From NCBI RefSeq assembly GCF_003334255.1, contig NZ_QOWU01000181.1: a stretch of DNA of 955 nt. One strand, written 5' to 3'. The DNA is from Escherichia coli. Its GTDB lineage: Bacteria > Pseudomonadota > Gammaproteobacteria > Enterobacterales > Enterobacteriaceae. The translations under genes were made by a program, and so were the position numbers. Positions 1-855 of this stretch are shown here, piece by piece; within the stretch, counting starts at the first letter, position 1; each line of letters starts with the position of its first letter. The notes beneath the pieces are model-generated. The model saw nothing but the letters and a program-made list of their open reading frames with translations, ran no database searches and was not told the DNA's origin.

Positions 1-43
1 TCCAGCCATCAGCCGAAAGGCACCCGCGCATAATCTACGATTT

Positions 44-108: not shown

Positions 109-840
109 TCAGAATTTCAGGCCAATACCTACAACAACCCCGCTCGTGCGCCAGTCACCAGATCCGGAGCTTTCATACGCGACATCCATAGCAACACTTT
201 CATTCAGGTTAAATTGTGCACCAGCAGCCCATGCAAGTGCTGTTTTTTTCGTACTGTTGCTTTCAGAAAATCCACCGGTACTGTTAATGTTGTCCTTAAT
301 TTTCAGGTCAGCGGTAACTTTAGCTACGCCCATACCAGCCATTGCATACACACTGAGGTATTCGTTAAACCGCCACGAAGGACCGGATAGTAGACTCCAG
401 TAATTAGCCCTGATATCAGTTCTCGCTGAAGCTGCCGGATTTTTAACCTCTCTGGATTCATCTCCTGGGTTAATATCAATAAATGCCTGCGCATTAGTCA
501 TAGAACGCGCCCATGTAAAAGATGTTATAACACCAATCTCATCCGTTATCTCATAACGATACCTGATGCTCATCCCCTGAGGAGATTTGCCTTTGCCATC
601 ATGCCCCCGGACAGAAGCATCTGCATATTCGCCTGAATTGAAGTAGTGTCTGTTTGTAAAACGGTTAAAAGTATCAAGATTATAAAGACTTAAATCCTTA
701 ACAAAATTGTTCAGTCCAGAGAGCTGAAGATGAGCGTATCCGAAAGAAACTGTACTGTCACCTTGTGCTGCACAGGCAGGGGCTGCTACAAAACTCATCA
801 CAAAAGTTGTGCACGCAAAAATAATTCTGGCATGTTTCAT
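109..840 (-). CDS. Ail/Lom/PagC/OmpX-family outer-membrane beta-barrel protein precursor (Lom-like, virulence-associated), 243 aa
   Basis: Seen in sequence: uninterrupted 244-codon minus-strand frame, ATG at 840..838, TGA at 111..109. N-terminus MKHARIIFACTTFVMSFVAAPACA|AQ is a textbook Sec signal peptide. The C-terminal block ...AYESSGSGDWRTSGVVVGIGLKF ends in Phe, the aromatic beta-signal of outer-membrane barrels. From memory, the blocks STVSFGYAHL, MSIRYRYEITDEIGVITSFTW, SGPSWRFNEY..YAMAGMG, ALAWAAGAQFNLNESVAMDVAYE and SGSGDWRT are colinear with lambda Lom (STLSAGYLH, INVKYRYEFTDTLGMVTSFSY, AGPSVRVNEW..YAMAG, SLAWGAGVQFNPTESVAIDIAYEGSGSGDWRT..GVGYKF). No database search was run. Confidence 0.85.
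   Translation of the reverse strand: MKHARIIFACTTFVMSFVAAPACAAQGDSTVSFGYAHLQLSGLNNFVKDLSLYNLDTFNRFTNRHYFNSGEYADASVRGHDGKGKSPQGMSIRYRYEITDEIGVITSFTWARSMTNAQAFIDINPGDESREVKNPAASARTDIRANYWSLLSGPSWRFNEYLSVYAMAGMGVAKVTADLKIKDNINSTGGFSESNSTKKTALAWAAGAQFNLNESVAMDVAYESSGSGDWRTSGVVVGIGLKF
769..840 (-). other. Predicted Sec signal peptide (residues 1-24), likely signal peptidase I cleavage after A-C-A (or one residue later after C-A-A)
   Basis: Positively charged n-region (K2, H3, R5), hydrophobic core IIFACTTFVMSFVAA, then A-x-A-type motif ACA followed by AQGD. Pro at -2 relative to the Cys argues against a lipobox, so a lipoprotein is unlikely. The corresponding lambda Lom segment, as I recall it, is ...AVSGAPAWA|SEH. 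Confidence 0.7.
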
Positions 841-851
841 TTTTAGACTTT

Positions 852-855
852 TCCT
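852..855 (-). promoter_or_regulatory. Candidate Shine-Dalgarno (AGGA) for the CDS
   Basis: Minus-strand sequence reads ...ATTATAGGAAAAGTCTAAAAATG. AGGA lies 11 nt upstream of the ATG, which is longer than the optimal spacer but the only purine-rich SD-like element present. Confidence 0.45.

Follow-up and report, generated by a model that had tools for sequence, protein, structure and literature searches.

The lom gene of a 933W-like temperate phage of Escherichia coli and the predicted fold of the long segment in its Ail/Lom-family product

The 955-nucleotide stretch of DNA analysed here (the window; contig NZ_QOWU01000181.1 of the Escherichia coli assembly GCF_003334255.1) contains a single long open reading frame (ORF), which runs on the minus strand from position 840 to position 109 and encodes 243 amino acids. 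This gene is lom, from a temperate E. coli phage of the 933W-like (Sepvirinae) type, and is orthologous to the 'LomW' gene of Shiga toxin (Stx) phages. Its product belongs to the Ail/Lom family of outer-membrane β-barrels and carries, compared with the short members of this family, a 42-residue insertion between strands 1 and 2. The resulting long segment is the standard architecture of a widespread and long-known Stx-phage Lom subfamily and is therefore already known; it evolves under purifying selection and is predicted to be folded. The good confidence expressed here applies jointly to the whole explanation, i.e. the identity of the gene, the barrel, the folded insertion, the status of lom as a phage 'moron' and a role of the protein at the surface of the lysogen.

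Family membership and the insertion between strands 1 and 2

Over its whole length, the window is 100% identical to the genome of Escherichia phage PhiR12_3 (PV340552.1), isolated on E. coli ECOR13, in which the matching coding sequence (CDS) is labelled 'Lom'. It is also 98.8% identical to a prophage of E. coli JNEC-KY177, where the label is 'Ail/Lom family outer membrane beta-barrel protein'. In PhiR12_3 and in the E. coli prophage, lom lies in a 933W-type tail region, flanked on one side by tail-fibre genes and on the other side by 933W-type hypothetical genes. The neighbours encode tail-fibre proteins and a protein with a YadA C-terminal domain, and also include a giant ORF with an LPD5 domain and an N4-gp56-type capsid gene. 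As is typical of a phage lom, the gene is thus a cassette of the tail region that is followed by a terminator-like structure of its own. The same position in the tail region is found in Stx phages, whose Lom proteins (LomW of 933W and those of VT2-Sakai, phi24B and POCJ13) likewise have 240–245 amino acids, a strand 1–2 segment of 57–58 residues and a longer loop 2. They display 68–81% identity with the window protein over the full length, i.e. only allelic sequence differences, and the window protein is another allele; the lom product of VT2-Sakai, with 244 amino acids, has a matching insert. The name of PhiR12_3 does not designate it as an Stx phage.

A previous reading of this DNA from sequence only had already proposed an Ail/Lom-family barrel, and profile searches agree with it. 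The Pfam family PF06316 (Ail_Lom) matches residues 88–243 of the protein with positions 49–199 of its 199 positions (expectation value, E, 9.8e-31), its N-terminal piece (residues 12–39 to model positions 12–39) being weak (E 8.9) because the insertion splits the domain. With PHROG 108 'Lom outer membrane protein', the match extends over the whole protein, residues 1–243 corresponding to profile positions 1–199 of 199 (E 5.4e-72), and the PDB sequences retrieved are those of lambda Lom (9wso_C, E 5e-23), Ail and OmpX. The best NCBIfam match, the Rck equivalog NF011777 ('resistance to complement killing'), is restricted to residues 85–243 and scores 88.2 bits for a cut-off of 258, and the OmpX equivalog NF006917 scores 68.1 bits for a cut-off of 176. 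As both scores are far below their cut-offs, the protein is a member of the family, yet neither Rck nor OmpX. The matches of the general Pfam and NCBIfam scan include no family named after Tia, Hek or PagN, no reference of these three adhesins having been compared; the parallel drawn with them by the sequence-only reading is one of length.

The conserved strand motifs of the family ([KR]YRYE, GP..R.N, Q[FI]N and YE near the C-terminus) are all present. Residues G89, Y94–E97, G153, P154, S163, Y165 and G169, as well as G207, Q209, N211, D219, Y222 and E223, are invariant in the window protein, its subfamily, lambda Lom, Ail and OmpX. Furthermore, a signal peptide and a C-terminal aromatic residue (…GIGLKF) can be read at the two ends of the protein, a C-terminal Phe being the usual assembly signal of outer-membrane proteins. 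Lambda Lom (206 amino acids; PDB 9wso chain C) shares with the window protein the family, the PHROG, the prophage origin and the location in the tail-fibre region, since lambda lom sits between J and the tail-fibre gene stf. It also shares the strand motifs KYRYE, GP, QxN and YE-SGSGDWRT and the length of loop 4. However, the two proteins are only 32–34% identical.

Positions 723 to 574 of the minus strand translate into LSGLNNFVKDLSLYNLDTFNRFTNRHYFNSGEYADASVRGHDGKGKSPQG, which corresponds to exactly 50 residues (40–89) located between STVSFGYAHLQ (strand 1) and MSIRYRYEITDE (strand 2). The 243-codon ORF and the stretch of some 49 residues reported by the sequence-only reading are thus both borne out. 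The enlargement of loop 1 that this reading had claimed relative to lambda Lom is real (+31 residues), but the figure of about 12 residues that it gave for lambda Lom should be 19 (PGTLPSLSGGDTGVSHLKG); the loop counterpart of residues 41–82 in lambda Lom is PGTLPSLSGGDTG.

When lengths are measured between anchors kept in all members, here the motifs G[YF] in strand 1 and [KR]YRYE in strand 2, the strand 1–2 segment comprises 57 residues in the window protein versus 26 in lambda Lom, where it is Pro/Gly-rich and devoid of any helix-like stretch, 21 in Ail and 17 in OmpX. The strand 3–4 segment (loop 2) comprises 44 residues versus 32, 28 and 24, respectively, and the strand 5–6 segment (loop 3) 39 residues versus 46, 29 and 29, whereas the periplasmic turns and loop 4 have equal lengths in the four proteins. 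Ail and OmpX are therefore shorter than the window protein by 36–40 residues in loop 1, 16–20 in loop 2 and 10 in loop 3. Compared with lambda Lom, whose loop 2 is 12 residues shorter and loop 3 seven residues longer, the net difference of +37 residues results from +31 in loop 1, +12 in loop 2, −7 in loop 3 and +1 at the N-terminus. The extra length is concentrated in loop 1 and is not confined there: the proposal that it lies in loop 1 rather than being spread evenly holds for the bulk of it, found between strands 1 and 2, but overlooked the longer loop 2. A profile–profile alignment of the subfamily (set A4) with 26 short-loop members including Ail and OmpX (set A5), obtained using hhalign, places strand 1 of the short-loop members on residues 29–40, in agreement with MAFFT. 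It contains one unbroken 42-residue insertion at residues 41–82 and an 11-column insertion at the tip of loop 2. Searched alone (51 amino acids), the insert retrieves nothing from Pfam or PHROGs and no match among PDB sequences (best E 1.4), and a new binding specificity of this insert, as suggested by the sequence-only reading, is neither supported nor excluded.

The same reading had considered the loop as unusual in its family, which does not hold, since common members share it. Indeed, a tblastn search of 50,697 phage records found matches in 400 of them, 187 at 60% protein identity or more; among the matches listed at this level, all 19 cover at least 98% of the query. The matched phages include VT2-Sakai, EDL933-Stx (933W), TL-2011c, Min27, POCJ13, 75/02 (Shigella phages) and many Stx1a and Stx2a phages. 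At the DNA level, a match was found in 147 of the 5426 complete E. coli genomes. Across family representatives, the length of the strand 1–2 segment runs continuously from 15 to 58 residues. Salmonella Rck and PagC have the Pfam family in common with the window protein, and Rck/PagC-like members have segments of 15–16 residues. Long forms are found in Salmonella enterica and Morganella morganii, and a 231-amino-acid protein of Serratia symbiotica was retrieved as a structural match. The long-loop proteins from these three species have 217–243 amino acids and 37–58-residue segments; however, they are only 28–43% identical to the window protein. In many long-segment relatives, the segment opens with the motif G-L-K-x-x-V.

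Predicted fold, selection and allelic variation

The AlphaFold2 (AF2) model obtained from a 78-sequence alignment has a mean predicted local distance difference test score (pLDDT) of 91.8 and a predicted template modelling score of 0.81. It comprises a helix at residues 3–18, strand 1 (29–40), a helix (43–67), a short strand (72–80) and strand 2 (88–97), followed by four long strands (102–125, 137–157, 162–183 and 190–211) and two short ones (216–225 and 232–242). A small eight-stranded antiparallel barrel is thus predicted, the strand count being taken from this list of elements. The pLDDT falls below 50 at residues 22–24, and the alignment with mature Ail and OmpX begins at residues 26–27. 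The fold check called for by the sequence-only reading therefore came out as expected: the top PDB matches found by Foldseek are the eight-stranded Yersinia Ail (3qrc, E 5.5e-16; also 3QRA) and E. coli OmpX (1qj9, E 1.3e-12; also 1QJ8), with a template modelling (TM) score of 0.83 normalised to the target and 21–26% identity in the structural alignments. Among AFDB50 models, a 243-amino-acid Ail/Lom protein of E. coli ranks first (TM 0.78, 46% identical), and the viral structure library BFVD contains no close match (best TM 0.46). The lambda Lom structure 9WSO is absent from the listed Foldseek PDB matches, and a literature search on this code retrieved only irrelevant papers.

Within the segment itself, the pLDDT of 10-residue blocks over residues 41–80 is 88–93. 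According to this model, the insert is predicted to be a folded module made of a helix, a short strand and a Gly/Lys turn, and not the flexible loop that had been assumed. The turn (residues 81–87) aligns with the loop-1 tip of Ail, KLDKNP, and leads into strand 2, in which 13 family members all share G89, Y94, R95, Y96 and E97. In P0032, a 243-amino-acid Salmonella protein only 34% identical to the window protein, AF2 also predicts helices in the strand 1–2 segment (residues 39–53 and 57–66; pLDDT 93.2). Strands 1, 2, 7 and 8 have a length suited to the membrane (10–12 residues), whereas strands 3–6, with 21–24 residues each, are about twice as long. The 25-residue helix, about 37 Å long, has the right length to span the distance between the upper end of strand 1 and that of the protruding sheet. 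Rich in N, K, D and R throughout, it is too polar to lie in or to cross the membrane; furthermore, many homologues have an acidic residue (D or E) at position 73, which makes it unlikely that strand 72–80 faces lipids. From these features, we infer the packing geometry, the exposure of the module at the surface and the placement of strand 72–80 outside the membrane.

The subfamily alignment and pairwise comparisons with four phage alleles document selection on the gene. The ratio of nonsynonymous to synonymous substitutions (dN/dS) is 0.14–0.23 for the mature protein, which indicates that the ORF is a real gene. This ratio is 0.11–0.19 for the membrane core and 0.23–0.39 for residues 41–87: the insert is under purifying selection, with a looser constraint than that on the barrel. 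Positive selection acting on loop 1 as a region was considered and, given these values, rejected. Within the mature protein, conservation across the subfamily is lowest in the helix 43–67 (mean pairwise identity 0.46) and at the tip of loop 2 (0.41). Nevertheless, G42, just before the helix, Y72, G79 and K85 are invariant, L43 is nearly so, and F46 and V47 are largely conserved.

The lowest dN/dS, below that of the membrane core, was observed for residues 172–200 (0.04–0.10; window positions 241–327), which correspond to the upper part of strands 5 and 6 and to loop 3. Such values would be consistent with loop 3 bearing a functional surface that is conserved. In Ail, loops 2 and 3 are those reported to matter for function.

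The lom alleles are mosaic. Relative to the window protein, P0005 and P0011 display 81–85% identity at residues 41–87 and 70–72% at residues 184–243; they have its loop-1 type and differ most from it at the C-terminus. The reverse is observed for P0004 (48–55% and 95–100% identity, respectively). Moreover, two main sequence types of the loop-1 helix, LSGLNNFVKDLSL… and FPGLKDFVKDA…, reassort with the rest of the gene. These patterns in the alleles suggest recombination within lom, the loop-1 type and the C-terminal half reassorting independently.

Possible role and alternative explanations

In the explanation considered as the most probable, lom encodes a Sec-exported, eight-stranded outer-membrane barrel of the Ail/Lom family, in which residues 40–89, including the insertion, would make up the extracellular link from strand 1 to strand 2. 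The helix would climb from the membrane surface along the long strands 3–6. Strand 72–80 would then run down along the upper half of strand 3, extending the lane of strand 2, which it would join through the bulged DGKGKSP turn. Helix and strand would thus yield a rigid extracellular tower, and this loop-1 module would form, with loop 2, most of the exposed and antigenically variable surface. The gene itself behaves as a lysogenic-conversion 'moron': it has a terminator of its own and an A+T-rich spacer in front of it, and its expression is uncoupled from induction in phi24B, where lom expression is similar in stable lysogens and in induced cells (PMC3342100). Most likely, the protein is displayed on the surface of the lysogen and acts in adhesion and/or serum resistance, by analogy with Ail, Rck, PagC and lambda Lom. 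References cited in PMC3342100 place lambda Lom in the outer membrane and link it to the adhesion of cells to buccal epithelium. As for LomW of 933W, specific antisera lower the adherence of enterohaemorrhagic E. coli (EHEC) to Caco-2 cells, and immunisation lowers colonisation in mice (PMC5003871).

The segment could instead be a long, flexible and exposed loop, hypervariable like those of Opa proteins and free to evolve binding specificities. The variability of its helix region, among the highest of the mature protein, would be expected from such a loop, as would a dN/dS two to three times that of the barrel core, the lack of any match to the insert alone and helix periodicity tests that are not significant. 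However, the prediction of a helix-type segment in two proteins that share just 34% identity, the block pLDDT within it, a dN/dS that stays well below 1, its invariant and largely conserved positions and the recurrence of G-L-K-x-x-V at its start in many relatives all argue for a constrained fold, which makes a free loop rather improbable. A different topology would have residues 72–80 (YADASVRGH) as the true first strand, homologous to YAQSRVKED of Ail, residues 25–67 then being an N-terminal addition, within a 9- or 10-stranded barrel or as a periplasmic extension. It finds some basis in a phmmer alignment of Ail residues 11–52 with residues 72–112, in which YAQSRVKEDGYK, placed on residues 72–83, is paired with YADASVRGHDGK, in a main PF06316 domain that begins only at residue 88, and in the nine strands listed by AF2. 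Nevertheless, it was rejected on the hhalign result, in which strand 1 of the short-loop members is followed by a clean 42-residue gap. PHROG 108, which matches from residue 1, the eight strands of the best structural matches, the polarity of the helix and of position 73, and the absence in the window of any internal DNA repeat that would mark a duplication of strand 1 go the same way. Such a topology thus appears extremely unlikely.

The function, rather than the fold, is at stake in the proposal that the protein serves the phage and not virulence, for instance by masking or modifying a surface receptor to limit superinfection or the re-adsorption of released virions, or as a minor component of the virion or tail. 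The location of lom among tail-fibre genes, like that of lambda lom, would suit this proposal, and mosaic alleles with highly variable exposed parts fit an arms race as well as immune pressure. Lom peptides have been found in purified preparations of phi24B virions, their levels being similar to those of structural proteins of low abundance, although the authors classed Lom as a contaminant (bioRxiv 10.64898/2026.04.10.717836). Conversely, the barrel, the signal peptide and the C-terminal Phe point to insertion in the outer membrane of the host, and PADLOC defence models gave no match to the window protein. Furthermore, PMC3430580 describes phi24B as able to infect one host cell multiply at high frequency, which argues against strong exclusion. 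A protein that serves the phage instead of virulence is given a low probability.

Several observations weigh against the explanation favoured here, i.e. a barrel with a folded tower and a role at the lysogen surface. The two AF2 runs used the same 78 sequences and hence are not independent. The hydrophobic moment of the helix at 100 degrees (0.276 versus a shuffle mean of 0.206; p = 0.24) and the periodicity of conservation at 95–105 degrees (p = 0.11) are not significant, so that it is the AF2 model that carries the helix. For the packing of the helix and of strand 72–80, the only basis is the length of the strands and the character of the residues. Upstream of lom, a scan of the minus (coding) strand for sigma-70 consensus promoters found none. 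Finally, the effects of the antisera show that LomW is accessible at the surface, not that it is an adhesin; according to PMC6692519, its function 'has not been characterized'.

Surrounding sequence and significance

The features identified in the window are listed in Table 1. The stem of the terminator-like hairpin downstream of lom comprises nine pairs, five of them G–C, and is followed by TTTTGTTGCC. On the other side, lom is preceded by an 86-nucleotide intergenic spacer (positions 841–926) that is A+T-rich (G+C fraction about 0.36).

Table 1. Features of the 955-nucleotide window, with residue numbers referring to the 243-amino-acid protein
Feature	Position	Strand	Basis and remarks
lom CDS, 243 codons, stop codon at 109–111	109..840	minus	ORF list; precursor of an Ail/Lom-family barrel
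Signal peptide, residues 1–24 (MKHAR, hydrophobic core, ACA/AQ)	769..840	minus	Sequence; cleavage site by eye
Strand 1, residues 29–40 (STVSFGYAHLQL)	721..756	minus	AF2; aligned with the first strand of Ail, OmpX and lambda Lom
Insertion relative to short-loop members, residues 41–82	595..720	minus	Single 42-column gap in hhalign; anchor lengths
Predicted α-helix, residues 43–67 (LNNFVKDLSLYNLDTFNRFTNRHYF)	640..714	minus	AF2
Predicted extra β-strand, residues 72–80 (YADASVRGH)	601..627	minus	AF2; Y72 and G79 invariant in the subfamily
Gly/Lys-rich turn, residues 81–87 (DGKGKSP), leading into strand 2	580..600	minus	AF2, non-regular; K85 invariant
Strand 2, residues 88–97 (QGMSIRYRYE), motif [KR]YRYE	550..579	minus	AF2
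Tip of the enlarged loop 2, residues 126–136 (GDESREVKNPA)	433..465	minus	11-column insertion in hhalign
Last strand with C-terminal Phe (…GVVVGIGLKF)	112..141	minus	Sequence; AF2 strand 232–242; F243 nearly invariant
Intrinsic-terminator-like hairpin and T-run, 23 nucleotides past the lom stop codon	66..86	minus	Pattern scan; consensus match only
Shine-Dalgarno-like AGGAAAAG upstream of the ATG	846..855	minus	Read from sequence
sok-like match	1..25, continuing to PhiR12_3 L002 7865–8025	minus	Rfam, sub-threshold

Positions 927–955 of the minus strand correspond to the 3' end of an upstream hypothetical gene of 205 codons (PhiR12_3 L002 8927–9544), which is conserved as orf64 in VT2-Sakai and whose function is unassigned. 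A few kb from lom, among the tail-fibre genes, lies the gene of the protein with a YadA C-terminal domain, noted as 'putative adhesin/invasin' (L002 13657–15150 in PhiR12_3; L001 17658–18911 in the E. coli prophage). This domain resembles the anchor domain of trimeric autotransporters, here within a phage tail region. In NZ_CM129855.1 and two sister E. coli genomes from wastewater, the window matches in two pieces and an IS1 family transposase is annotated beneath the match; the lom locus of these three genomes appears to be interrupted by IS1.

Just downstream of lom, a sub-threshold match to the Rfam family 'sok' (RF01794; 42.1 bits for a gathering threshold of 59, E 1.3e-7) was found. In the E. 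coli prophage, a Hok/Gef gene is annotated 233 nucleotides past the lom stop codon (L001 11736–11876); it is unannotated in PhiR12_3. The 20-nucleotide '24B_1' RNA of phi24B maps 140–160 nucleotides downstream of lom (PMC4426718), which would place it within this hok/sok-like stretch. This small RNA may thus be a piece of either the hok leader or a Sok-type antisense RNA.

A more speculative extension, which is rather unlikely in its full form, would consider the long-form Lom proteins (the LomW type and its relatives from Salmonella, Morganella and Serratia) as a distinct sub-class, in which a helix–strand tower bears a ligand surface that Ail, OmpX and lambda Lom lack. In that case, the reassortment of cassettes between lom alleles would change the specificity of EHEC lysogens for host cells or serum factors.

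The gene being already labelled Lom in PhiR12_3, the identification of lom in this window has little significance beyond tidy annotation. LomW-type lom genes have been present in Stx-phage genomes since the VT2-Sakai record (AP000363), and LomW has repeatedly been used as a vaccine antigen against EHEC. The helical loop-1 module and the enlarged loop 2, where the alleles vary most, are predicted to dominate the surface of this antigen. This predicted variable surface bears on the design of loop swaps aimed at the function of LomW, on the choice of epitopes and on cross-protection.

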